Assembly (NCBI GenBank): GCA_002763225.1
Contig: PFAI01000021.1
Location: forward strand, 6,296-31,639
From: Candidatus Diapherotrites archaeon CG10_big_fil_rev_8_21_14_0_10_31_34
GTDB taxonomy: Archaea; Iainarchaeota; Iainarchaeia; Iainarchaeales; 1-14-0-10-31-34
Direction: 5' to 3'
Length of the DNA stretch: 25,344 bases
The notes under the pieces were generated by a model. That model worked only from the letters and a program-made list of their open reading frames with translations. It was not told the origin of the DNA and searched no databases. Below, piece after piece: positions 5,579-24,903 of the stretch. Each line of letters opens with the position of its first letter. The stretch's first letter is position 1. The position numbers were made by a program, and so were the translations under genes.

Positions 5579-6061
5579 TCACAGTTTTTGGAATTTTTGT
5601 TGATTTTTAATAAAATTCTCCTGGCTTTCAAGTAGTTGTCGTTCTTCATTATCCAAAGCCTCCAATTCTTTAACTAATTCGTCAGTTGAATTAATGACAA
5701 CAGTGTTTTCAGTGCTCAAGTTCTCCAATAACAGTTCATACTTCATTGTGGCCAAAACGTCTGAAATCTTTAGGTCGTCAATCAATTTGTCTCTTTTCAC
5801 TGGATATTGGGTCTTTTCAGCATACAAAGCATAAATTGATTTAATAATAGACAATTGCATTTCCTTGACGCCTTTTGTGGTATTCTGTAAGGCAATTTGG
5901 GCTAATTCCTTACGCCCTTCACTCCAATTATAATTAGCAATCCACTTTTGAATTGTCCTGCTATGCACTCCAACTTCTTCTGCTATTTTTTCTTGCGTTA
6001 AACCAACACAATACAAATGAAATGCTTTAGCTTTTATTTCCCAGTCAATTCTTGCAGGCAT
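5579..6061 (-). CDS. Terminase small subunit-like HTH protein (DUF1804/gpP-N-like)
   Basis: KAKAFHLYCVGLTQEKIAEEVGVHSRTIQKWIANYNW N-terminal HTH typical of TerS-like proteins; helical C-terminal part. Confidence 0.65.
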   Translation of the reverse strand: MPARIDWEIKAKAFHLYCVGLTQEKIAEEVGVHSRTIQKWIANYNWSEGRKELAQIALQNTTKGVKEMQLSIIKSIYALYAEKTQYPVKRDKLIDDLKISDVLATMKYELLLENLSTENTVVINSTDELVKELEALDNEERQLLESQENFIKNQQKFQKL

Positions 6062-6115
6062 TTAATCCCTTTTTTCAATGGCTTCTATTGAATAAACCAT
6101 TTTTACACTTTTCAT
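6062..6115 (-). CDS. Possible 17-aa mini-ORF MKSVKMVYSIEAIEKRD
   Basis: GAGG RBS upstream; its TAA directly abuts the ATG of the terS-like gene; fills the intergenic gap. Confidence 0.35.
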   Translation of the reverse strand: MKSVKMVYSIEAIEKRD

Positions 6116-6125
6116 TTTTGCTTCC

Positions 6126-7781
6126 TCACTCCCCCAGTCCCGTTGGTCCCTTCAGTCCACTCGGTCCAATTTCAGTATATTGGGGCTGATTGGGCTGATT
6201 GGGCTGGTTTGACTGGGAGAGTGTCTGTTGTTTTTCATCTTCAGTTTCTTGAATATAATCAGGCAAATATCTGCGTTTCAGGCGATTCAAAAGCTTTGGC
6301 TCCCAACACAAATAACGAATTTTTTTTCTTTTCTTGCCTTCACGTTCAGTTTCTATTGTTTCCCACACTCTTTTATCTGTAAAACCTAATCCCTTAGCTA
6401 CCTTGCCCAATTTTATTAGGGAAATGCCAGTGCTTTCAGAAACTTCAGAGTACCTTGCTTCTGTTTCATTATTGAATCTATCGTCATCAAAGAAAGCAAT
6501 TAATTGTCCTTCTGGTGTCTGAGAACGAATTTCAATGATTTCTTTTTGGTATTCTTTGGCAAAATTCCAGAACTCTGCTTCCAGTTCAGGAACAGCTTTC
6601 AACAAAACATAAAAAGCAGAAAAAACTTGCTTTAATCTTGGCTCTAACCCTTTAGCTTGGGGTTCTTTGTTTAAATCCAAAACAAGCTCTGGATTTATTT
6701 TTCTCAGGGTCTTAAAACGGAACATTAAAAGTTTTCCTTGAATCTCTTTTTGTTTCTGAAAAAAAGATGGAGGTAAAACGTAAGGAATATCTTTTCTTTC
6801 TGTTTCTTGCATTGTTTCAGTTAAAGTTCTGGCTTCAAGAGCCTTGTCATGAAACTCTCTTCTTCTCGCAAAGATTTTCGGACCAAAAGCATCAAAAAAA
6901 TCTAATTCATTCAAGTTATCGCTATTTGTTCTCACAACAGGTTTTCCTTTTTCAAATCCACCATTCAAAACTTTTGTAATCATTTGGGATTCATCAGATT
7001 TATCTCGATCACATTCTTCAATTATTAATGTGCCTTTCCATTTCTTTTGCAATCTATAAAGCGCTGAAGGAGTTACTGCCCCTGAAATAAAAATCGGTCT
7101 ATAACAAATTCCTCCAACTGAATCAGTCAATCTTGTTTTGCCTTGCCCTGTGTCTCCTTTTGCTGAAAGGTAAGGGATAGTAGTCAGTTTATCAAAAACC
7201 CAAGTTAATAAAACATACAAAGCACAAATAACATACATTATTTCTCTGACATCTAAAACATATTTCAGCATAACTTTAATTTCTTCAAATAATTCTCTAA
7301 CATCATATTCAATTGCCTGCTCTGGCAATCGCACTAATTTTAATTCAAGTTCTTCTCCTTGTAGGGGATAAAACATTTCTCCATTAACTTCAATAAATTC
7401 CTTATATTGAACAGATTCCTCCACATAACAGGCAAAAAAAGAGCCATCTGTTTTTGTTATCTGTTCTACCATAATGTTTTCTAATACTACCCCTGCTAAT
7501 CTCTTTTTTTCTTCTTTCTTTTCTTTTTCAGGCTTATCTGCCTGTTTAACAATTGTTTTTGAATTTATTAATTGAGGAATCCTTAATTGTTCAATTTCTT
7601 TGTTTATTTTGTTTAAGCTAACTCCTTTTTCAACTGCATTCGTTTTAATTGTTGTTAAATCATGTAATGCTGTTTGATTGTCAATATTGACTTGCCCAAC
7701 TATCAGTTCTCCTTCTTCAGAAATTATTTTTGCAGTGAATACTTTTGAATTTTGGCTGGCTACAATAATGAATTCTTTCAT
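6126..7781 (-). CDS. P-loop NTPase, putative replicative helicase of a mobile element (DUF3631-like)
   Basis: Walker A GDTGQGKT, TPSALYR, Walker B LIIEE, FGPKIFA, ALEAR arginine finger; start placed at MKEFIIV (AAGGTG RBS, 1 nt after the upstream stop). Confidence 0.75.
   Translation of the reverse strand: MKEFIIVASQNSKVFTAKIISEEGELIVGQVNIDNQTALHDLTTIKTNAVEKGVSLNKINKEIEQLRIPQLINSKTIVKQADKPEKEKKEEKKRLAGVVLENIMVEQITKTDGSFFACYVEESVQYKEFIEVNGEMFYPLQGEELELKLVRLPEQAIEYDVRELFEEIKVMLKYVLDVREIMYVICALYVLLTWVFDKLTTIPYLSAKGDTGQGKTRLTDSVGGICYRPIFISGAVTPSALYRLQKKWKGTLIIEECDRDKSDESQMITKVLNGGFEKGKPVVRTNSDNLNELDFFDAFGPKIFARRREFHDKALEARTLTETMQETERKDIPYVLPPSFFQKQKEIQGKLLMFRFKTLRKINPELVLDLNKEPQAKGLEPRLKQVFSAFYVLLKAVPELEAEFWNFAKEYQKEIIEIRSQTPEGQLIAFFDDDRFNNETEARYSEVSESTGISLIKLGKVAKGLGFTDKRVWETIETEREGKKRKKIRYLCWEPKLLNRLKRRYLPDYIQETEDEKQQTLSQSNQPNQPNQPQYTEIGPSGLKGPTGLGE
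6135..6217. repeat. Inverted arrays of 9-bp-period iterons, candidate replication origin
   Basis: GTCC at 6137, 6146, 6155, 6164; GGGCTG at 6183, 6192, 6201 and TGACTG at 6210 in the opposite orientation. Confidence 0.65.
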
Positions 7782-7782
7782 T

Positions 7783-8016
7783 TTATGCACCTTGAGTTGC
7801 TGTTTCATTTTTAAAGAAGTTCAGTTCGTGTTGTTGCAGGGGAATTTTTTCTAAAATTTCTAAGATCCTTTGTGCGCTTCCTGATTGTTGAACACAGCAA
7901 CAGCAGACATAATATGTTTTTTGTCCTCCGTGAACAACAAACTTAAATTTTTTTGGCCCTCCGGTTATTCCACAAAGTTCGCAAAACTTAGCTTTTTTAT
8001 TTTTCAAAAGTACCAT
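7783..8016 (-). CDS. Small zinc-finger protein
   Basis: CELC...VCCCC; start placed at MVLLK behind a GAGGT RBS. Confidence 0.65.
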   Translation of the reverse strand: MVLLKNKKAKFCELCGITGGPKKFKFVVHGGQKTYYVCCCCVQQSGSAQRILEILEKIPLQQHELNFFKNETATQGA

Positions 8017-8161
8017 TAATATCAACCTCGTTATTGAAGCCCTTTTGGGCTTCATTTTTTTCAGACAAAATCCTGAACAAAGTGAAATAGTTTATCTGAT
8101 TCTTCTTGCAAACCCTTTCCAAAAATCCTTTGGTCTGACTGAAATTCATTTTTGTTTTCAT
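7997..8161 (-). CDS. Hypothetical 54-aa protein (not in ORF track)
   Basis: MKTKMNFSQTKGFLERVCKKNQINYFTLFRIL...; ATGA-coupled to the upstream RHH gene. Confidence 0.55.
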   Translation of the reverse strand: MKTKMNFSQTKGFLERVCKKNQINYFTLFRILSEKNEAQKGFNNEVDINGTFEK

Positions 8162-8313
8162 TCAGCTTCCCTTTCTTTTTCTTGAATTTTTTTATGTTGT
8201 TTTCTGATAAGAGTTCTTAAAGTTGAAGCTATGTTGTCAGTTTCAAAGAACTCCTTAATTTTAGAAAGCTTTTTTTCATCTTCTTTTGTCATACGAAAGA
8301 ACAAACCTTTCAC
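8158..8313 (-). CDS. Ribbon-helix-helix (CopG-like) regulator, 51 aa (not in ORF track)
   Basis: GTG start after AGGTGA RBS; MKGLFFRMTKEDEKKLSKIKEFFETDNIASTLRTLIRK fits strand-helix-helix. Confidence 0.7.
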   Translation of the reverse strand: MKGLFFRMTKEDEKKLSKIKEFFETDNIASTLRTLIRKQHKKIQEKEREAE

Positions 8314-8348
8314 TTTAATCACCTGATTTTTATCTAAAATAAATCTCG

Positions 8349-8389
8349 GCGATATCGCTTTATAAAAGTTTTATCACAAAAACATGATA
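8349..8389. promoter_or_regulatory. Bidirectional promoter/operator of the element
   Basis: Palindrome GCGATATCGC 8349-8358, palindromic TATA TTTATAAA 8359-8366, TATCA-N8-TGATA 8372-8389. Confidence 0.6.
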
Positions 8390-8390
8390 T

Positions 8391-8987
8391 ATGGTTTATT
8401 TCAGCAATGGTCAGAAAAAAGCAGTAAAAGGAGAATCAAAACATCCTCAGCTTCAAGCTAAAGCTAAAGATAAAATTAGAAAAATGCCCGAAGTAATAGA
8501 AGAAATTAAGCTTGCTGTCTATTCCCGTTTTGGTAAGGAATACAGACAAGAAATATTTGCTGCTTTTGCTAAAGAATTTTCTGCTCAGGATTTTTTTGAA
8601 ATATTTGAGGCAATGCCTATAACAAAACAAAAAGAGTTTATTAGAGAATTGCACATGAGAAGTGGCGCAATACATATAAAAATGTACAACTTCTTAATGT
8701 CAAATTATAAAACAATTGAAGCCGATCTTGATTGGCTAAAGAAAAATAAAAAATATTTAAAGGCGCTTTATGAAGTATCAAAACTTGGAGTAATACAGTC
8801 AGAAAATGAGATTGGTGTTTCTGCTGGCATGTTAAAAACCTTAAATGATAAAAATTTTCTTTGGAAAGAAGAGAATTATAAGTATTATGGGGTAAAGAAA
8901 AAACGGAAAAGAAGGAAAAAACCATTGAGAATATATTACGAACTTTCATCTTATGGAGAATGGCTTCTTGAAAAAATTCCAAAATAG
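8391..8987 (+). CDS. Hypothetical protein with C-terminal winged-helix-like domain, candidate repressor
   Basis: GVSAGMLKTLNDKNFL...YYELSSYGEWLL wHTH-like end; divergent from the replication operon. Confidence 0.6.
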   Translation: MVYFSNGQKKAVKGESKHPQLQAKAKDKIRKMPEVIEEIKLAVYSRFGKEYRQEIFAAFAKEFSAQDFFEIFEAMPITKQKEFIRELHMRSGAIHIKMYNFLMSNYKTIEADLDWLKKNKKYLKALYEVSKLGVIQSENEIGVSAGMLKTLNDKNFLWKEENYKYYGVKKKRKRRKKPLRIYYELSSYGEWLLEKIPK

Positions 8988-8989
8988 TT

Positions 8990-10318
8990 TTATGCTTTTA
9001 GTCCTGCTTTCTGAATTATTTTGATCGCTTGTGGTTTACTCATTTTTTGGAATTCTTCCATTAGCTTTAGCAGGGCTTCTTGGTTTTGCCTGTCTTTTTC
9101 TCTTTCTTGTTCAATTTTGACTAATTTTTCTTTGAGTTCTTTTAATTCAGTTTGCTGGACTTTAGAGACAATTCTTTCATCTAATCTGTTGCCGCATACG
9201 CAGACACTGGAAAAAGGGCTGTTTAGTTCACCGCATTTCTTGCAGGTGTCAGGCAGTTTAGGCTTTAATTCGTCTTTATTGAAAAAGCCGTCCATTGAAT
9301 CAATGTATTTGGCAGTAGTTTTTTGGGCAATATGAGTGTAACGCTGAAGCATTCTTCCGCCAATTCTTTGCCCGACATGTTTTTGGATTACTGCATCAGG
9401 CCAGCTTAACCTCTTCAATAAAGTAATGCCTAAATGCCTTAACTGCCTTGGAGTAACCTTTTCAACATTAATATTAAGCCTTCTTGCAGTGTTTTTTAAT
9501 TGCTTAACAAAAGCTTCTCTTGTCATCTGCCTTAAACCATAATAGCAGTCATTCAATACAATAAAAGGAGAATCCAAAAAAATTTTATCAAATTTCAAGG
9601 GATGGCCTTGACAACCAATTCCATTCAAGTAACTCCAAACATATTTTGTTGCCCAAGTATGCCTTTGAATTCTTTTGCCTGTCTTGCCTTTAATTACAAC
9701 ATTCATTTTAACTGGCCTGGAAGTTAAATCCCCTAACCTTACTTCTTCATCGTTTTCCTTCAAAAACTTAAAAGAACTGACAGTTAAATTGTATTCCCCT
9801 GAACGCAGGCAGCCCTGAATGCCCATTAAAAACAAGGCAAACCATTCAATTGATTTTTTTCTCCATTCCTCTAACAATAAAATGAATTCTTCATCTGAAA
9901 GAATTTCATCTTCATCTAATTCATTAATTGTTTCTTTAATGCAAGGAAACTCTAAATCAAAGCCCTGAAGTTCAGAAGAATTAAACTGCTTTAAAACGAG
10001 TTTTCCAACCAAACGATACATTCTCTTAGAAGAATTAGAAATATCTTTTTTTTCCAGCAAAACTTTCCTTAAATCTGCTTTAGTGAATTCACTGAAAGGC
10101 TTTTGAATGATTTTAGCTATTTGAAGGCCTTTATCCAAATAAATTAATTCCCTCACTAAACCAAAGTTTTTGCCGGAAATAGATTGCTCTTCTTTATGCT
10201 TTTCAATTAATTTTTCAGAATCAGCTAAAAAATTGCTTCCAAGCTTTGAAAAAGCTTGTTTCATTCTCTTGATTTTTTTTCCAACTTTAAAATAGTCTTC
10301 AGAATACTTTAAGGACAT
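8990..10318 (-). CDS. int: Tyrosine recombinase/integrase with C-terminal Zn ribbon and coiled coil
   Basis: GCLRSGE, KGKTGKR, TPRQLRH, MLQRYTH, CKKCG...CVCG; start moved to MSLKYS because AGGAGG RBS and TTTAAATA lie upstream. Confidence 0.9.
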   Translation of the reverse strand: MSLKYSEDYFKVGKKIKRMKQAFSKLGSNFLADSEKLIEKHKEEQSISGKNFGLVRELIYLDKGLQIAKIIQKPFSEFTKADLRKVLLEKKDISNSSKRMYRLVGKLVLKQFNSSELQGFDLEFPCIKETINELDEDEILSDEEFILLLEEWRKKSIEWFALFLMGIQGCLRSGEYNLTVSSFKFLKENDEEVRLGDLTSRPVKMNVVIKGKTGKRIQRHTWATKYVWSYLNGIGCQGHPLKFDKIFLDSPFIVLNDCYYGLRQMTREAFVKQLKNTARRLNINVEKVTPRQLRHLGITLLKRLSWPDAVIQKHVGQRIGGRMLQRYTHIAQKTTAKYIDSMDGFFNKDELKPKLPDTCKKCGELNSPFSSVCVCGNRLDERIVSKVQQTELKELKEKLVKIEQEREKDRQNQEALLKLMEEFQKMSKPQAIKIIQKAGLKA

Positions 10319-10380
10319 AAGTAAGTTCCTCCTATTGAAATATTTAAATTCTAAGGAGGGAACCTTACCTTTTTCCTTCA

Positions 10381-10567
10381 CGCCTTGGCCGGGATTTGAA
10401 CCCGAGTCACAGCCTCTCCGCTTTTTTCCAAAATTTATGTTTTTGTTCAACCTTTTTTTGAAAAAGGTTGTTTTGATACAACTTTTTTCTAAAAAGTTGT
10501 TTTTGCTAAAACTTTTGGAAAATTTTTTTTTGACAGGGCTGGATCCTAACCACTAGACCACCAAGGC
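10381..10567 (-). tRNA. tRNA-Asp(GUC) with a 115-nt intron at 37/38 (intron 10416-10530)
   Basis: Acceptor GCCTTGG/CCAAGGC, G73; anticodon stem CAGCC/GGCTG; loop CT-GTC-A; T-loop TTCAAAT; central helix CUGU/GCGG plus a 3-nt 3' bulge. Confidence 0.95.
10441..10530. repeat. Three tandem 30-bp TTTTGNT-palindrome units inside the tRNA-Asp intron
   Basis: TTTTGTT, TTTTGAT, TTTTGCT at 10441, 10471, 10501, each followed by a palindrome (third imperfect). Confidence 0.85.
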
Positions 10568-15057: not shown

Positions 15058-16278
15058 ATGAAAAGGAAAAGAAGAAAAAGCATTGAAGTTAAAATAGGAA
15101 AAATAATGATTGGAGGAAACAATCCTGTTGCAGTTCAGTCAATGACTAATACTCCGACTGAAGACATAAAAAAAACTGTTCAGCAAATAAAAGATTTAGC
15201 TGACGCAGGAAGCGAGTTAGTCAGGTTTACAGTAAAAGATGATTTAGGAGCAAAAGCTGTTCCTGAAATAAAAAAACAGTTATTGAATGAAGACTATGAT
15301 GTTCCTTTAATCGGAGACTTTCATTACAACGGGCATATTTTGTTAACTAAGTTCCCTAAGTGTGCTGAAGCATTAGATAAATTCAGGATTAATCCCGGCA
15401 ATGTCGGTTTTGGTTTAAGCAGAGACGAAAACTTTGAAAGCATGATTAAAGTTGCAATACAAAACAGCACTCCAATAAGAATTGGGGTTAACTGGGGTTC
15501 ATTAGACCAATCAGTTTTAAAAAAATTAATGGATGAAAATTCAAAGCAAGGCAATCCAAAAACAAATAATCAGGTAATGATTAATTCAATTGTAACCAGT
15601 GCATTGGAAAGCATTAAAAAAGCAAATGAATTGGGTTTAGAAAACAACAAAATTGTTGTTTCAGCTAAAAGTTCCAGAGTGCAGGACATGATTAAAGCAT
15701 ATGAATTACTTGCAGCAAAATGTGATAATGCATTGCATTTAGGTGTAACTGAAGCCGGACCAGGAATTAAAGGAGCAGTTCATACTGCAGCAGGTTTATC
15801 TGTTATTTTACAACAAGGAATCGGAGACACTATTCGTTGTTCTTTGACTCCAACTCCAGGCGTTAAAAGAACAGAAGAAGTTGTTATTGCAAAACAGGTT
15901 TTGCAGAGCCTGAATTTAAGGAGATTTAATCCTGAAGTAACTTCTTGTCCTGGATGCGGAAGAACTACTTCAACTGTTTTTCAGGAAATTGCATTAAATA
16001 TAGATGAATTTTTAAAGAAAAAAACTCCTGAATGGAAAGAAAAAGGATTCAAGGGATTTGAAGAAATGGAAGTGGCAGTAATGGGCTGTATTGTTAACGG
16101 CCCGGGCGAAAGCAAAAATGCAAACATTGGCTTAAGTCTTCCGGGTTCTGGAGAAACTCCTTCTGCGCCGGTTTTTGCTGACGGAAAACAAATCAAATTA
16201 TTAAAAGGAAATGCAAAAACTCTTACAAAAGAATTCATTAAATTAATTGAAGAATATGTTGAAGAGCATTACAAATAA
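15058..16278 (+). CDS. ispG: (E)-4-hydroxy-3-methylbut-2-enyl-diphosphate synthase
   Basis: VQSMTNT, DFHYNG, RINPGN, RIGVNWGSL, HLGVTEAG, GIGDTIR, CPGCGRT, MGCIVNGPGE. Confidence 0.97.
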   Translation: MKRKRRKSIEVKIGKIMIGGNNPVAVQSMTNTPTEDIKKTVQQIKDLADAGSELVRFTVKDDLGAKAVPEIKKQLLNEDYDVPLIGDFHYNGHILLTKFPKCAEALDKFRINPGNVGFGLSRDENFESMIKVAIQNSTPIRIGVNWGSLDQSVLKKLMDENSKQGNPKTNNQVMINSIVTSALESIKKANELGLENNKIVVSAKSSRVQDMIKAYELLAAKCDNALHLGVTEAGPGIKGAVHTAAGLSVILQQGIGDTIRCSLTPTPGVKRTEEVVIAKQVLQSLNLRRFNPEVTSCPGCGRTTSTVFQEIALNIDEFLKKKTPEWKEKGFKGFEEMEVAVMGCIVNGPGESKNANIGLSLPGSGETPSAPVFADGKQIKLLKGNAKTLTKEFIKLIEEYVEEHYK

Positions 16279-16279
16279 A

Positions 16280-17134
16280 TCAAACCGTAAATGTTTCAAT
16301 TACTGTATGATATTTTTGTGTCAGTTTCTGTATTATTTTAGTTGAATCTTCTTTTGTTTTTGGAAAACAAAATACTGTGCTTCCTGAACCGCTCATTAAA
16401 ACTTTAAAAGAATTTTCTTTCATTATTTCTTTGACGTGTTTTATTTCAGGAAAATCTTCTAAAACACTGAACTCAAAATCATTATGCAAAAGTTCAGCCA
16501 GTTCTTCAATTTTTTTTCCTTGTTCTATTGCTTTCCTTAACTTTTTTGAAGCCAAAACTTTCCCTGATTTCTCATAGTTTACTTTTGAGTAAGCTGTTGG
16601 AGTTGAAACACGAATTCCCGGATTGCATACAAGAACTCTTGTTTTAGGAAAAGATTTTATTTCAGTTATTTTTTCTCCTCTTCCAGAAGCAAAACAAGTT
16701 TTACCATACAAAAAGAAGGCTACATCCATCCCGATTTTTTTTGTTGTTTCCTGCAAGTCTTTTTCATGCATTTTTATTTTCCATAATTTGTTTAATCCTT
16801 TGATTACTGCTGCTGCATTACTGCTTCCTCCTCCAAGGCCTCCTGCAACAGGAATTATTTTGTTAATTGATATTTCAATTCCTTTTTCTATTCCATAAAC
16901 TTCTTTTATCAGTTCAGCTGCTTTCCATACAAGATTTTTTTCGTTTAACGGCACTTCAGGAGCATTGCATTTAATTATAATTTTGTTTTCATTTAATTCT
17001 TTCAGGATTATTTCGTCTTTTAGTTCCAGTTCCTGCATTATCATTTCCAGTTCATGATAACCGTCAACTCTTTTTTTGATTATATCTAAAGTTAAATTAA
17101 TTTTTGCCGGAGAATCAATTTTCAGTTCGTTCAT
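16280..17134 (-). CDS. ispE: 4-(cytidine 5'-diphospho)-2-C-methyl-D-erythritol kinase
   Basis: PAKINLTL...DGYHEL, IPVAGGLGGGSSNAA, G.DV.FF, NDFE, MSGSGSTVF. Confidence 0.95.
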   Translation of the reverse strand: MNELKIDSPAKINLTLDIIKKRVDGYHELEMIMQELELKDEIILKELNENKIIIKCNAPEVPLNEKNLVWKAAELIKEVYGIEKGIEISINKIIPVAGGLGGGSSNAAAVIKGLNKLWKIKMHEKDLQETTKKIGMDVAFFLYGKTCFASGRGEKITEIKSFPKTRVLVCNPGIRVSTPTAYSKVNYEKSGKVLASKKLRKAIEQGKKIEELAELLHNDFEFSVLEDFPEIKHVKEIMKENSFKVLMSGSGSTVFCFPKTKEDSTKIIQKLTQKYHTVIETFTV

Positions 17135-21529: not shown

Positions 21530-21677
21530 GCCTTGTTGAAAACAGGGCGATATATTTCGTTGCCGCCGGGCAAAACAGCGAAACGTTTATTGTAGTGCTA
21601 TCACAGATAGCACGCTCCCTTCCGACAGCTGGGCTGAAAGCCCTGCACCGTTACACCCGCACGGAAGCGGGTAACGG
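21530..21677 (+). ncRNA. Unidentified structured RNA candidate
   Basis: GC-rich island of consecutive stems; three G-U pairs all favour the plus strand. Confidence 0.5.
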
Positions 21678-21882
21678 GCCCACCGGGAGTCGAACCCGGG
21701 TCCACAGCTTACAACTTTTTCCAAAAGTTGTATCAAAAACAGTCCTTCGGACGTGCACAACTTTGTTGTGCTTTAAGCATCATCTGAACCATTGCAGTAC
21801 GACTGAAAGTCGTACGTTTTGTTACACCTTTTGGAAAAGGTGTTTTAGGAGGCTGTCATCCTATCCACTAGACTATAGGCCC
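21675..21882 (-). tRNA. tRNA-Arg(CCU) with a 136-nt insertion at about 37/38 (21710-21845)
   Basis: Acceptor GGGCCTA/TGGGCCC, G73 and A20 Arg identity elements, anticodon stem ACAGC/GCTGT, loop CT-CCT-A, T-loop TTCGACT. Confidence 0.9.
21711..21843. mobile_element. MITE/REPIN-like insert forming the tRNA-Arg intron
   Basis: Imperfect 27-28 bp terminal inverted repeats (21711-21738 and 21817-21843), each itself palindromic; three internal hairpins. Confidence 0.55.
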
Positions 21883-21914: not shown

Positions 21915-22184
21915 TTATTGGCCTTTGAACCATTTTTCGTATTGTTTGTGGTTTCCAACAAAATGAATTTCTTTTTGCAGTTCTTCTTCGTTTTGATAAA
22001 AAGCTATTCTGTATTGCCCAACTTCTTCTACTAAAACTTTTGATTGTTTCAGCCCTCTTGCCATTAAAGGCTGTTTCATTTGACTAAATTTTTTTAAAAT
22101 TCGTTTTTGGATTTCTTTGTCAAATTTTTTAAAGTGCTTGTCCCATTCTTTCTTGAAAACCAGTTTCCAAGGCATTAATTCCAA
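21915..22184 (-). CDS. RelE/ParE-superfamily toxin
   Basis: WKLVF...FKKFDKEIQKRILKK...VGQYRI...VGNH...Y. Confidence 0.8.
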   Translation of the reverse strand: MELMPWKLVFKKEWDKHFKKFDKEIQKRILKKFSQMKQPLMARGLKQSKVLVEEVGQYRIAFYQNEEELQKEIHFVGNHKQYEKWFKGQ

Positions 22185-22189
22185 TTAAT

Positions 22190-22438
22190 TCACTTGTATT
22201 CGGCTAAAGCCTTTTCTTCGCTTAAATATTTTTCTCCTTTTTTGTTCATTTTGCCTTTTTCTTTCATTATTTTTCTTTCAACTAACTCTAATTCAATGTC
22301 TTTGACGAGTTTGTATTCCCTGTTTAAAGCAAAAACTCCCATTCGCAAAGCACTGGTTTTTGATCGAGCTAAACCTAATTCAACTGCTTTGGTTAAAATT
22401 AATTCATCTATTCCTTCAAATTCAACTGTAGTTCTCAA
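22190..22438 (-). CDS. RHH-type antitoxin
   Basis: RTTVEF...AVELGLARSKTSALR, ending KYLSEEKAL; GGTGA RBS and TTG start; directly upstream of the toxin. Confidence 0.75.
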   Translation of the reverse strand: MRTTVEFEGIDELILTKAVELGLARSKTSALRMGVFALNREYKLVKDIELELVERKIMKEKGKMNKKGEKYLSEEKALAEYK

Positions 22439-22527: not shown

Positions 22528-24903
22528 TTAAAGTTCTCTTAAATAACCCCATGTATGCAGTTTGTCTGAGTCTTCAAACCATCTGTTTCCAATATCATAT
22601 CTGTAATACATGTGAGGGATATTAATATTTTTTACTCTTGAATACATTTGATTTTGTGCTTGTTTCATTGTTTGCCCGGTTCCGCAGACAATTAATGCTA
22701 CTCCTGCTGTTCCTGTTATAATCCATTCTCCGTTGACTAATTTAATGTCTTCAATATGAACTCCTTCTGTTGGTTTTTTGAAGTATACAATTGAGTCTTT
22801 TGATTTTACGTCAAATGTTTCTTGGTCTGTGAATGGAAAAGGAGGAACAACTAATCTTAATCCTACTTGGAATCCAGTTTTTGTTTTGAGTTTTGGGGTT
22901 TCTCCTTTAGAGAGTTCATGCAGGAATTCTCCTATTGGAGTAATCATTCCTTCTTGTTGAATGCTTATTGTTGGATAACCAAATCTGGAAGTCCATTCCA
23001 ATGGATAAATTCCATTATTGTTTACAATGCAGTTAATGTCAATATATCCAATATAATTTTCTTCAATTAATTTTGCTTCCATTTTTTTTAGTGTGTGATT
23101 GAATATTTTGTTTGGTTCGCTCCAAAACATAAAAGTGTTTCCGCACCAATATGGTTTTCCGTTTCTTCTTATATACATTATGTGATTTTTTACTGTTGCG
23201 CAATAAACTTTTCCAGAGTATTTTTCTTTTTTAATGTCTCTTTTGTCTATCCATGAATTAATTTTTTTTACTCTTTCATGTACTTCGTATTGCGGTCTTG
23301 TTGATTCAGCGTAATGGTCTTTTATCCAGAGTTTTCCATATCTTTCTCTTTTTTTTATTATTCCTATTTTTCCGGTTTTAAGAAGCAGTTCTTGAATGTC
23401 GTCTGCAAGTTTTTTTGAAGAAGTATAAAATATTCTGTATCCTCCTTTCATTTCTGTTGCATCCCCTAAAGCAAACCATTCAAGGAATAAATTAATTTGT
23501 CTTGGACTTAAACTTTTTATGAATTCAGGAACATATTTTTCGTGTGCTTTGCCGAATTTGCTTAAATATTCGCCAAACTGTTTGTCTTGAAAGTAAAATT
23601 GGTTTTTTGTTTTTGAAAAACTGAACTGCATTTTTTCAAGCAGTCCTTTAATTAATTTTGTTTGTTCTGCTTTTTTTTGGGCAATACTTATTCGGTTGTT
23701 TGTTGTGCTTCCGTCTGCAAGCCAGATTCCTGTAAAAGAAAGCCAGTCATCCATTTCAATTTTTTGTTCGCCTGTTTCATGAAGCATTACTTGTCTTCCT
23801 TCATAATGCCCTATCTGGACTGAAGGAAGAATAAAATATTTTTTTTCTATGCCAATCCATTTTCCTGTTCTTTTTATCAGTGACTGGTGCCCTAAATTTT
23901 TTGCTTTGACAAACTTGAATGAATTTTTTTTGTTTCTTGCATTCCATTGGCTTGAAACATACATATTATGATCTAAAGTTACTTTTATGTCAAGAGTTTG
24001 GTTTTGAATTGAAATCAGTTCTTTGTGGTGGTCAAAAACAACAAGTTCTTCTGGTTCATTGAATTCAATTTCATGGTTTAATGGATTTAAAGTGCATATT
24101 TTATCTTTATAGTTTAATTCTCTGAAAAATTTCCATCCATTGTCTGTTAATACTTCTGTTTGCTCGTCATAGCATCCCATTTCTCCTGTGCTTGGACCTA
24201 AATTTCCTGGAAAAAGTTTTTTGTTTTCAAAATTCACATTAATTGGATAAATAAATTCTTTTCCGTTAAAAAATGCGCCTACTGCAACTTCTACTCCTGA
24301 AACTCTTTTTTGAAGCTGGAATACAGGAATTTTTTTTGCCCAGGCTTTATTATAGTCTTCTAAAACCTGCATGACATCTTTTCCGTCTTCTTCTTCTCCG
24401 ATAAAAAGCATTCCTTTAATGTTTTGCGCTTCTCCGCTTGGTTTTATTACATATTTATGGGGGTTTGCTTTAACAAATTCTATTGCTTCTTCAAATGAAG
24501 TAAAATCTTTGTATGGAAGAATTGGTACTCCTGCGTTTTTTAGTTCTTCTTGTCCAAAAGCTCTGTCATCTTCTAATTGGTCAGTGTAAGGTGTTCCGCC
24601 AATAACATTTTTTCCTTGTTCTCTTAATTTTTTTGCTATTGTTCCTTGCCCTAAAACATCATCAAAAATTATGGTGTCTGCCCAGTCAACTTCTTTTTCC
24701 CAGTTATCAACTTTTTCTATGAATCCGTCTGCAACTTCTTTGTCTTCAGGGTTTTCAGTGGAATATTTTACTTCATGGCCTTCTTTTTTTAATTGCCATG
24801 CAAGGTCGCCTGTTAATGCGTCAAGTGAAACAAACAAAAACTTTTTTGCTTCAATTTTATGGTTATTTTTTGTTTCAATTTTGTGGTTGTTTTTTGTTTC
24901 CAT
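22528..24903 (-). CDS. purD: Phosphoribosylamine-glycine ligase-like ATP-grasp protein containing an intein
   Basis: LEDDRAFG, YVIKP, FENKKLFPGNLGPSTGEMG|T, LEWTSRFGYP; divergent PurD-like form, function not certain. Confidence 0.75.
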   Translation of the reverse strand: METKNNHKIETKNNHKIEAKKFLFVSLDALTGDLAWQLKKEGHEVKYSTENPEDKEVADGFIEKVDNWEKEVDWADTIIFDDVLGQGTIAKKLREQGKNVIGGTPYTDQLEDDRAFGQEELKNAGVPILPYKDFTSFEEAIEFVKANPHKYVIKPSGEAQNIKGMLFIGEEEDGKDVMQVLEDYNKAWAKKIPVFQLQKRVSGVEVAVGAFFNGKEFIYPINVNFENKKLFPGNLGPSTGEMGCYDEQTEVLTDNGWKFFRELNYKDKICTLNPLNHEIEFNEPEELVVFDHHKELISIQNQTLDIKVTLDHNMYVSSQWNARNKKNSFKFVKAKNLGHQSLIKRTGKWIGIEKKYFILPSVQIGHYEGRQVMLHETGEQKIEMDDWLSFTGIWLADGSTTNNRISIAQKKAEQTKLIKGLLEKMQFSFSKTKNQFYFQDKQFGEYLSKFGKAHEKYVPEFIKSLSPRQINLFLEWFALGDATEMKGGYRIFYTSSKKLADDIQELLLKTGKIGIIKKRERYGKLWIKDHYAESTRPQYEVHERVKKINSWIDKRDIKKEKYSGKVYCATVKNHIMYIRRNGKPYWCGNTFMFWSEPNKIFNHTLKKMEAKLIEENYIGYIDINCIVNNNGIYPLEWTSRFGYPTISIQQEGMITPIGEFLHELSKGETPKLKTKTGFQVGLRLVVPPFPFTDQETFDVKSKDSIVYFKKPTEGVHIEDIKLVNGEWIITGTAGVALIVCGTGQTMKQAQNQMYSRVKNINIPHMYYRYDIGNRWFEDSDKLHTWGYLREL
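23137..24174 (-). mobile_element. Intein (346 aa) with LAGLIDADG homing endonuclease
   Basis: Block A CYDEQTEVLT, block B VTLDHNM, GIWLADGS and EWFALGDA motifs, YSGKVYC, end WCGN followed by Thr. Confidence 0.92.
24850..24900. repeat. 24-bp tandem duplication (ETKNNHKI x2) at the PurD-like N-terminus
   Basis: Units 24850-24873 and 24874-24897 differ at two synonymous positions. Confidence 0.85.

Follow-up and report, generated by a model that had tools for sequence, protein, structure and literature searches.

The window, the whole stretch of 25,344 nucleotides analysed here, comes from a 1.04-Mb, 81% complete assembly of an archaeon of the Iainarchaeota (G000), which we compared with five congeners (G001-G005) and with two genomes of sister genera (G007, G008). 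At 21675-21882 on the minus strand, Rfam places a tRNA with a large insert in its anticodon loop. Sequence and Rfam assign the 5' exon of this tRNA-Arg(CCU) gene to 21846-21882 (minus strand; positions 1-37, with A20 present and positions 32-35 at 21851-21848) and, together with the alignment of orthologs, the 3' exon to 21675-21709 (minus strand), which runs from A38 to G73 and does not encode the CCA. Between the two, at 21710-21845 of the same strand, sits a 136-nt intron at position 37/38, which sequence, Rfam, folding and repeat comparison resolve into a mosaic of hairpin repeat units. The initial annotation had described the exons as intact, with A20 and G73, and both sequence and Rfam confirm this; the 5' exon is identical over its whole length in G001-G003 and over the aligned part in G004. 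The predicted spliced junctions are CCTAAGCTGT for Arg(CCU) and TCTAAGCTGA for its paralog Arg(UCU).

A second tRNA gene of the window, tRNA-Asp(GUC) at 10381-10567 (minus strand), likewise has a long anticodon-loop insert according to Rfam; its 115-nt intron (10416-10530, minus strand) is built from copies of repeat unit A, keeps all four pairs of the central helix, two of them G-U, and served as an internal control. ARAGORN without intron search detected neither gene, and annotators miss genes such as these intron-bearing tRNAs. An open reading frame at 8990-10450 (minus strand) resembles a tyrosine integrase (PF00589, E 8e-5, below the cut-off); its frame starts in the tRNA-Asp intron and passes through the 3' exon, and mobile-island-like genes occupy 5579-8987. 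Elsewhere, 15058-17134 holds GcpE (IspG) and a GHMP kinase that we take to be IspE-like, bacterial MEP isoprenoid pathway genes in an archaeon, and at 22528-24903 (minus strand) a PurD-like ATP-grasp gene is broken by an intein-like insert with a LAGLIDADG match. Just upstream of tRNA-Arg(CCU), two small open reading frames (21915-22438, minus strand; 89 and 82 amino acids) have no Pfam match and presumably resemble a RelE-type toxin-antitoxin pair; a similar reading-frame end precedes the Arg(CCU) gene of G003.

The splice junction of the insert

Positions 32-35 of the tRNA (CUCC) face a GUUG at intron positions -6 to -3, which lies within the inverted repeat unit at the 3' end of the insert (21715-21712). 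C32 pairs with G(-3) and C35 with G(-6), while U33·U and C34·U are unpaired, leaving a central helix of two pairs out of four, below the four base pairs of a canonical bulge-helix-bulge (BHB); reading the sequence bears out what had been noted first about this pairing, including the pair at C32. The outer helix h, the anticodon stem, is complete with five of five pairs and adjoins a 3-nt bulge, and the h' helix is absent by eye, with AACA from position +2 facing AAAA from position -7. A UAA repeat at both insert ends permits three further registers: checked by hand, one of them gives three of four central pairs with neither outer helix, the other two give one of four each, and none yields a canonical BHB. 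Two internal CAAC tracts can pair with GUUG, and by hand no nested route results from them. The original statement that the insert lacks a canonical BHB thus stands, alternative registers and nesting included.

The insert folds much better than its shuffled versions (z = -4.99, 0/200 as good), and in the computed folds the -6 to -1 segment is either locked in a 10-bp repeat hairpin or paired to the 5' end of the intron, the splice-ready shape being absent. Given such strong folding and a G near the 3' end, one might think of a self-splicing, group I-like intron or of a nested one, but no Rfam intron family matched up to E = 10, the orthologous introns have no conserved core and the search by hand gave no nested BHB; we consider this reading barely credible.

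In its position, its 3-nt 3' bulge and its use of the anticodon stem as the outer helix, the Arg(CCU) intron resembles the canonical archaeal 37/38 BHB introns of the hBHBh' and hBH types, the more so as genes for EndA and RtcB are present and most sister introns have four of four pairs; it differs from them in its two-of-four helix, the missing h' and its construction from dispersed repeats. Its 136 nt exceed the 11-129 nt that the available text of a review gives for archaeal tRNA introns (PMC4090602), and a tRNA-Cys gene of the same genome (G000:C15:25582-25909, minus strand) has a repeat intron of about 254 nt, twice that upper length. As far as its available text describes it, a classifier for Asgard archaea scores a three-of-four helix as relaxed (bioRxiv 10.64898/2026.10.13.758758), and the Arg(CCU) junction falls below that class. 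Central-helix mismatches at a real splice site are known from the tRNA-Met(CAU-1) intron of S. tokodaii, where, in the part of the report available to us, additional flanking pairs make up for the mismatches and cleavage falls to a crenarchaeal two-subunit enzyme (PMC4307357); at Arg(CCU), in contrast, h' is missing and the EndA is a single-gene enzyme without a loop insert.

Repeat units and the mobile-element reading

Read from its 5' end, the insert begins at the splice junction with a forward copy of repeat unit A (21816-21845, minus strand; pattern match 21817-21832), an A/T-rich hairpin of -8.8 kcal/mol with a 4-nt loop and a ...CAAAA tail. Unit B follows (21792-21815, minus strand), a G+C-rich hairpin with a TGCAA tail; its pattern has 15 matches and none in the control, the stems show compensatory variants among those 15, and further copies of the unit sit within the Trp intron and following other tRNA genes. 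Folds and the comparison of introns then distinguish a GCACAAC/GTTGTGC hairpin (21755-21771), found also in the Arg(UCU) intron with its loop inverted, and a GTCC/GGAC mini-hairpin (21742-21752), which opens a 43-nt stretch that the Arg(UCU) intron repeats letter for letter. The last element is an inverted unit A (21710-21741, plus strand; pattern match 21723-21738; -7.9 kcal/mol), whose hairpin arm provides intron positions -6 to -1 and whose palindrome stands at 15 places of the genome (17 strand matches, 0 in the control). The hairpins GTACGACT and TACAACTTTT, with 3-nt loops, are present as well, and the repeat listing and the folds agree that the short-looped hairpins named at the outset are real. 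A second repeat family adjoins the 3' end of the tRNA (21590-21674, plus strand), and its unit recurs as the 3' end of both the Thr(UGU) and the Ala(CGC) intron.

The unit-A pattern has 79 matches in the genome against one in the control, 14-81 in each congener (n = 5), 5-27 in three other members of the family and at most 12 in each of 32 more distant genomes. By eye, tRNA introns contain seven of the 79, and 13 are no more than about 250 bp away from a tRNA gene; in the stretches read, the unit elsewhere forms same-direction arrays, and what immediately precedes such an array is often a stop codon or the 3' end of a tRNA. Bacterial REP, BIME and REPIN elements are short imperfect palindromes with constant tails and compensatory stems that form mosaic arrays at intergenic and tRNA-adjacent sites. 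The repeats studied here are likewise many short palindromes with a constant tail in mosaic arrays, and by this general comparison they share with those elements the tails, the stem variants, the arrays and the siting. They differ in their archaeal host, in forming strands of splice sites and in that PF01797 (Y1, RAYT-type) was not found in G000 or in four of the five congeners (G001-G003, G005), all incomplete genomes; it was found in G004, G006 and G008. A search of the 81% complete G000 for PF00078, PF01541 and PF13359 was negative too, and all four families were rejected as mobilisers of the repeats, being missing from G000 and not tracking the repeat-rich genus. Similar hairpin repeats occur in an Arg(UCU) insert from a record titled Altiarchaeota (L039).

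The insert had at first been likened to a MITE, that is, to one 136-nt mobile unit with terminal inverted repeats and, in an IS5/PIF-like manner, a TAA target duplication. IS5/PIF elements target TAA, and TAA does flank both ends of the insert in this genome's two Arg genes when they are compared with the empty site of G007 and G008, one of its bases being the fixed A38. The inverted arms are real (21714-21738 and 21817-21841; 25 nt, 88% complementary), and the genome has two DDE_Tnp_1 (PF01609) frames, at L214:790-1900 (G000:C27) and G000:C36:16222-16740. The arms, however, are two facing copies of the dispersed repeat, self-palindromes that occur singly elsewhere, and here the claim of terminal repeats parts from the sequence: facing unit-A pairs within 300 bp are, by eye and among the 79 matches, confined to the two Arg introns, and copies with both ends are found in the 81% complete genome only in these two anticodon loops. 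The comparison with empty sites, proposed earlier as a way to define a target duplication, leaves it unsupported because the other 10 of the 12 Arg genes of the genus lack the 3' TAA. Of the transposase families searched for a partner (PF01609, PF13359 and PF01797 only), PF13359 was not found, and the fetched stretches beside the two PF01609 frames hold no arms matching the insert ends. The likeness to a MITE is thus superficial and the reading largely refuted; we regard it as very improbable. An idea of our own, that the repeat ends had been point-mutated to restore pairing at the junction, was dropped as free arrays carry identical ends.

Age, exchange and pairing across introns

Both Arg(CCU) and Arg(UCU) carry a 37/38 intron in six of the six genus genomes, and on this comparison of sequences the Arg(CCU) intron is old rather than newborn, contrary to what had been supposed. 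Among the genus orthologs of Arg(CCU) the exons are nearly unchanged, the exon differences of G005 being compensatory stem changes, whereas the intron contents largely differ and the interiors are unalignable. In G007 and G008 (L232 and L231) position 37/38 of Arg(CCU) is empty and another intron lies near position 29/30, with a full hBHBh' in G008, while Arg(UCU) of both has a 37/38 intron with four of four pairs. The Arg(CCU) gene of G006 was not found; a candidate for it (L233) proved to be a Gly gene. Within G000, the introns of the two Arg genes are 94% identical over the first 36 nt and 100% over the last 43, and in G003 both Arg introns begin with one shared variant of the 5' unit. In the simplest reading, the Arg(CCU) intron was gained at the base of the genus and probably copied from Arg(UCU).

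Conservation suggests that the Arg(CCU) intron is very probably spliced. Arg(UCU), which has the same 3' end, is the only AGA reader found, and AGA is in use, supplying five of the six Arg codons of endA. The Arg(YCU) 5' exon matches exactly twice in each genus genome, and a search of all six, five of them 90-96% complete, turned up no Arg(YCU) junction without an intron. RtcB is present alongside EndA; its frame (G000:C60:39638-42454, minus strand) encodes 984 amino acids with two matched parts and is probably split by an intein. Another reading, foreshadowed by the suggestion of an inactivated, dispensable isoacceptor, is that a repeat at the 3' end destroyed CCU splicing, leaving a young pseudogene, and that Arg(UCU) reads AGG. 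U34 wobble makes a CCU isoacceptor dispensable in principle, and the two-of-four helix, the lack of h', the competing hairpin and a genome 81% complete, in which a second Arg gene copy could therefore be missing, would all agree with such a loss. Nevertheless, the intron of Arg(UCU), a tRNA that AGA codons need, finishes with exactly these 43 nt, a diverged metagenomic relative (L230) retains this end, the Arg(CCU) junction of G002 has independently come to two of four pairs and the exons are without decay. This makes inactivation quite improbable, and neither the shared 3' end nor the lack of an intron-less junction across the genus agrees with the suggestion from which it started. Among other tRNAs of G000, a tRNA-Ile with a UAU anticodon was seen at G000:C44:2600-2676 (minus strand), and its G003 counterpart has an intron (L184).

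Pairs were scored by eye except in a column count of seven aligned genes, and the genomes are related, so the counts are not independent. In the seven genes, C32-G(-3) and C35-G(-6) are both paired in 7/7, while the two middle positions do not pair in 5/7 and 4/7; the slid controls are 27-56% paired against 86%, and the shuffle control (18/500) is weak, as kin share letters. Among the 12 Arg introns of the genus, two have four of four pairs, seven have three and three have two; G(-3) occurs in all 12, over nine distinct ends, and C35-G(-6) in 9/12, with G(-6) in eight of the nine distinct ends. The three introns lacking the C35 clamp are the UCU introns of G003-G005, and the Arg(UCU) junction of G000 has two U·U mismatches. 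Order members outside the genus, in contrast, keep four of four pairs in 10/11 Arg introns. G000 has introns in 17 of the 39 tRNA genes found, and its 14 non-Arg 37/38 introns comprise 11 with four pairs and three with three; of the matches listed for the congeners, 25 long ones were taken, four were dropped as non-37/38 or double introns, and the 21 scored comprise 18 with four pairs and three with three. Altogether the non-Arg introns of the genus have the full helix in 29 of 35 scored, and imperfect helices occur in 14 of 17 loops with C32 and C35 versus two of 30 other loops. The 32:-3 pair, singled out from the beginning as the key element, is indeed the most constant, being formed in 47/47 scored 37/38 introns of the genus (12 Arg, 14 other in G000 and 21 of relatives); in the non-Arg introns U32 faces A or G and C32 faces G. 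In summary, C32-G(-3) is invariant, the end G-C pairs are mostly kept in CUCC/CUUC loops and the middle pairs drift.

Beyond the genus, a three-of-four helix appears in CUCC loops of two unrelated archaea (L056, L065). Fifteen metagenome loci gave 13 scorable Arg introns, one intron-less gene and one that is cut off; eight of the 13 have four pairs, three have three and two have two, and G(-3) is present in 13/13. One of them, L230, carries the same 43-nt end with two of four pairs behind a different 5' unit and flank. The same two-of-four end stands in two metagenome contigs, one with a different context, and so is neither an assembly error nor fleeting. The free repeat arrays, on the other hand, carry the same ends with the G's at -3 and -6 ready-made, so part of the constancy at these positions could reflect a fixed insertion register rather than selection. 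Three other introns were noted in passing: tRNA-Pro(GGG) (G000:C13:9881-9977, minus strand) has a C at position 33 matched, by eye, by a G at intron -4, and full BHB motifs occur in the Met anticodon-stem introns of G002 (L196) and G004 (L203) and in the Phe D-loop intron of G000 (G000:C9:20088-20207), all in genomes with a single-gene EndA.

The endonuclease and the proposed history

A single EndA gene was found in the genome (L001:1218-1736, minus strand, G000:C6; 172 amino acids), and 36 of the 37 genomes with a match, among 41 searched, have one copy, the remaining genome having two partial matches at contig ends. The protein is one catalytic unit from one gene, as in alpha4 enzymes; by profile it aligns gap-free with the M. 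jannaschii alpha4 EndA (PDB 1A79), which is also the top fold match (TM 0.89) of its predicted model (pLDDT 90.6), and relative to 1A79 it has no L1/L2/L3 insert and no insertion for a broad-specificity loop (CSL/ASL/L3). Y108, H118 and the recognition arginine R142 are invariant, as in the M. jannaschii enzyme; the Tyr-His-Lys triad, unlike there, is incomplete, with T149 aligned to K334 of M. kandleri and to the equivalent lysine of three other solved enzymes, and there is a conserved YPxGKKPG loop. Replacing that lysine (K334A) abolished cleavage by the M. kandleri enzyme. Residue 149 is Thr in 27, Ala in two, Ile in one and Lys in none of 30 order members, and in a set of 120 homologues at least 90% carry Thr at this position. 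We also compared 41 single-unit representatives, selected by length out of the 150 listed: Lys stands at the position in 25 of them and Thr, Ala or Ile in the other 16, of which the three Ala forms have an extended Tyr-His loop containing a GPK motif. The case for K112 as a specific replacement for the lysine is weakened, because a Lys at that place is also present in many EndAs that keep the catalytic Lys and is missing from several that have Thr instead. Nor can the change from Lys to Thr alone explain the erosion of the Arg junctions, because it is order-wide while the eroded junctions are genus-specific, and outside the genus Arg introns keep the full helix.

According to the available text of two papers, relaxed motifs are efficiently removed only by (alpha-beta)2 and epsilon2 EndAs, although loop-bearing alpha4 EndAs of DPANN archaea may be broader (PMC5829648, PMC6379350), and a BHL at 37/38 is cleaved by the A. 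fulgidus enzyme when it is part of the full pre-tRNA (PMC6379350). A very relaxed endonuclease, as first proposed, captures the need for a tolerant splicing step; its generality is contradicted by the full helices that most non-Arg introns of the genus keep. A stronger form would have splicing follow the eukaryal style, in which a mature tRNA body, the 32:-3 pair and a 3' bulge suffice, the 5' site is cut single-stranded and the rest of the helix is optional. The 32:-3 pair as the one pair present in every scored intron of the genus and every scorable metagenomic Arg intron, the lack of h' in Arg(CCU), the three UCU introns without C35-G(-6) and the unusual active site all speak for it. Yet a pure 32:-3 rule would not maintain four of four pairs in 29 of the 35 non-Arg introns or G(-6) in nearly all distinct Arg ends, the introns at non-canonical positions (Phe D-loop, Met and G008 Arg) have full hBHBh' motifs and only one EndA-like gene was found; we hold this explanation to be unlikely.

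We therefore favour, at a probability of roughly two in three, a working 37/38 intron remodelled by repeats and spliced at a mismatched helix clamped by G-C pairs, the splicing being inferred from conservation. Arg(UCU) would already have carried its intron in the family, and the genus ancestor would have gained the Arg(CCU) intron, the simplest route being a copy passed from one of the near-identical Arg genes to the other, possibly through gene conversion. Small hairpin repeats, perhaps targeted to exon boundaries, would then have repeatedly replaced the interior and the ends of the intron, the two Arg introns exchanging ends and selection keeping only what splicing needs. In the full precursor, the competing repeat hairpin would first open or refold against the 5' unit; the single-gene, alpha4-type EndA would then cut a helix in which two G-C clamps enclose a 2x2 pyrimidine mismatch, presented by the anticodon stem and a 3-nt 3' bulge without h', and RtcB would seal the exons. 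K110, K112 or K113 of the Tyr-His loop, or K148, is likely to stand in for the catalytic lysine. Against the clamp model, EndA has the same colinear layout as the alpha4 enzyme of M. jannaschii, which is strict, and the folds bury the -6 to -1 segment. In a bolder version, which we find rather doubtful, the hairpin repeat would be a REP-like element that homes in on the boundaries of tRNA exons, on both strands, and actively supplies intron sequence and splice-site strands. It would be tolerated because a loop-less, lysine-less single-gene EndA can cut where hardly anything beyond the 32:-3 pair holds the junction together; the system might then stand, in a living lineage, halfway between the BHB rule of archaea and the anticodon-intron rule of eukaryotes.

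In the mostly open literature searched, supplements aside, we found no report of repeat-built tRNA introns or of a Thr-for-Lys EndA in Iainarchaeota, and a prior mention is possible; the available text of the Forterrea paper does not describe these repeats (PMC5905446). Intron transposition among tRNA genes is known from Thermoproteales (available text of PMC4090602 and bioRxiv 10.64898/2026.10.13.758758), where closely similar introns likewise sit in different tRNA genes of one genome; what is shared here is, by contrast, a hairpin repeat spread across the genome, within tRNA genes and elsewhere, combined with an exchange of ends between Arg paralogs. The same preprint, in its available text, treats the origin and turnover of tRNA introns in archaea as an open question and found no general route in Asgard archaea (bioRxiv 10.64898/2026.10.13.758758). 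The genus studied here offers a visible donor, a dispersed hairpin repeat from which both the interiors of introns and strands of their splice sites derive, as well as two paralogs that exchange ends. It also forms a natural mutation series of one splice site, with four, three and two pairs of four, and together with a small, easily expressed single-gene EndA this makes two textbook rules directly testable, one demanding a strict BHB for alpha4 EndA, the other holding the lysine of the triad to be indispensable. If the Arg(CCU) intron is cut out, a simple EndA would be more tolerant than the textbooks say.
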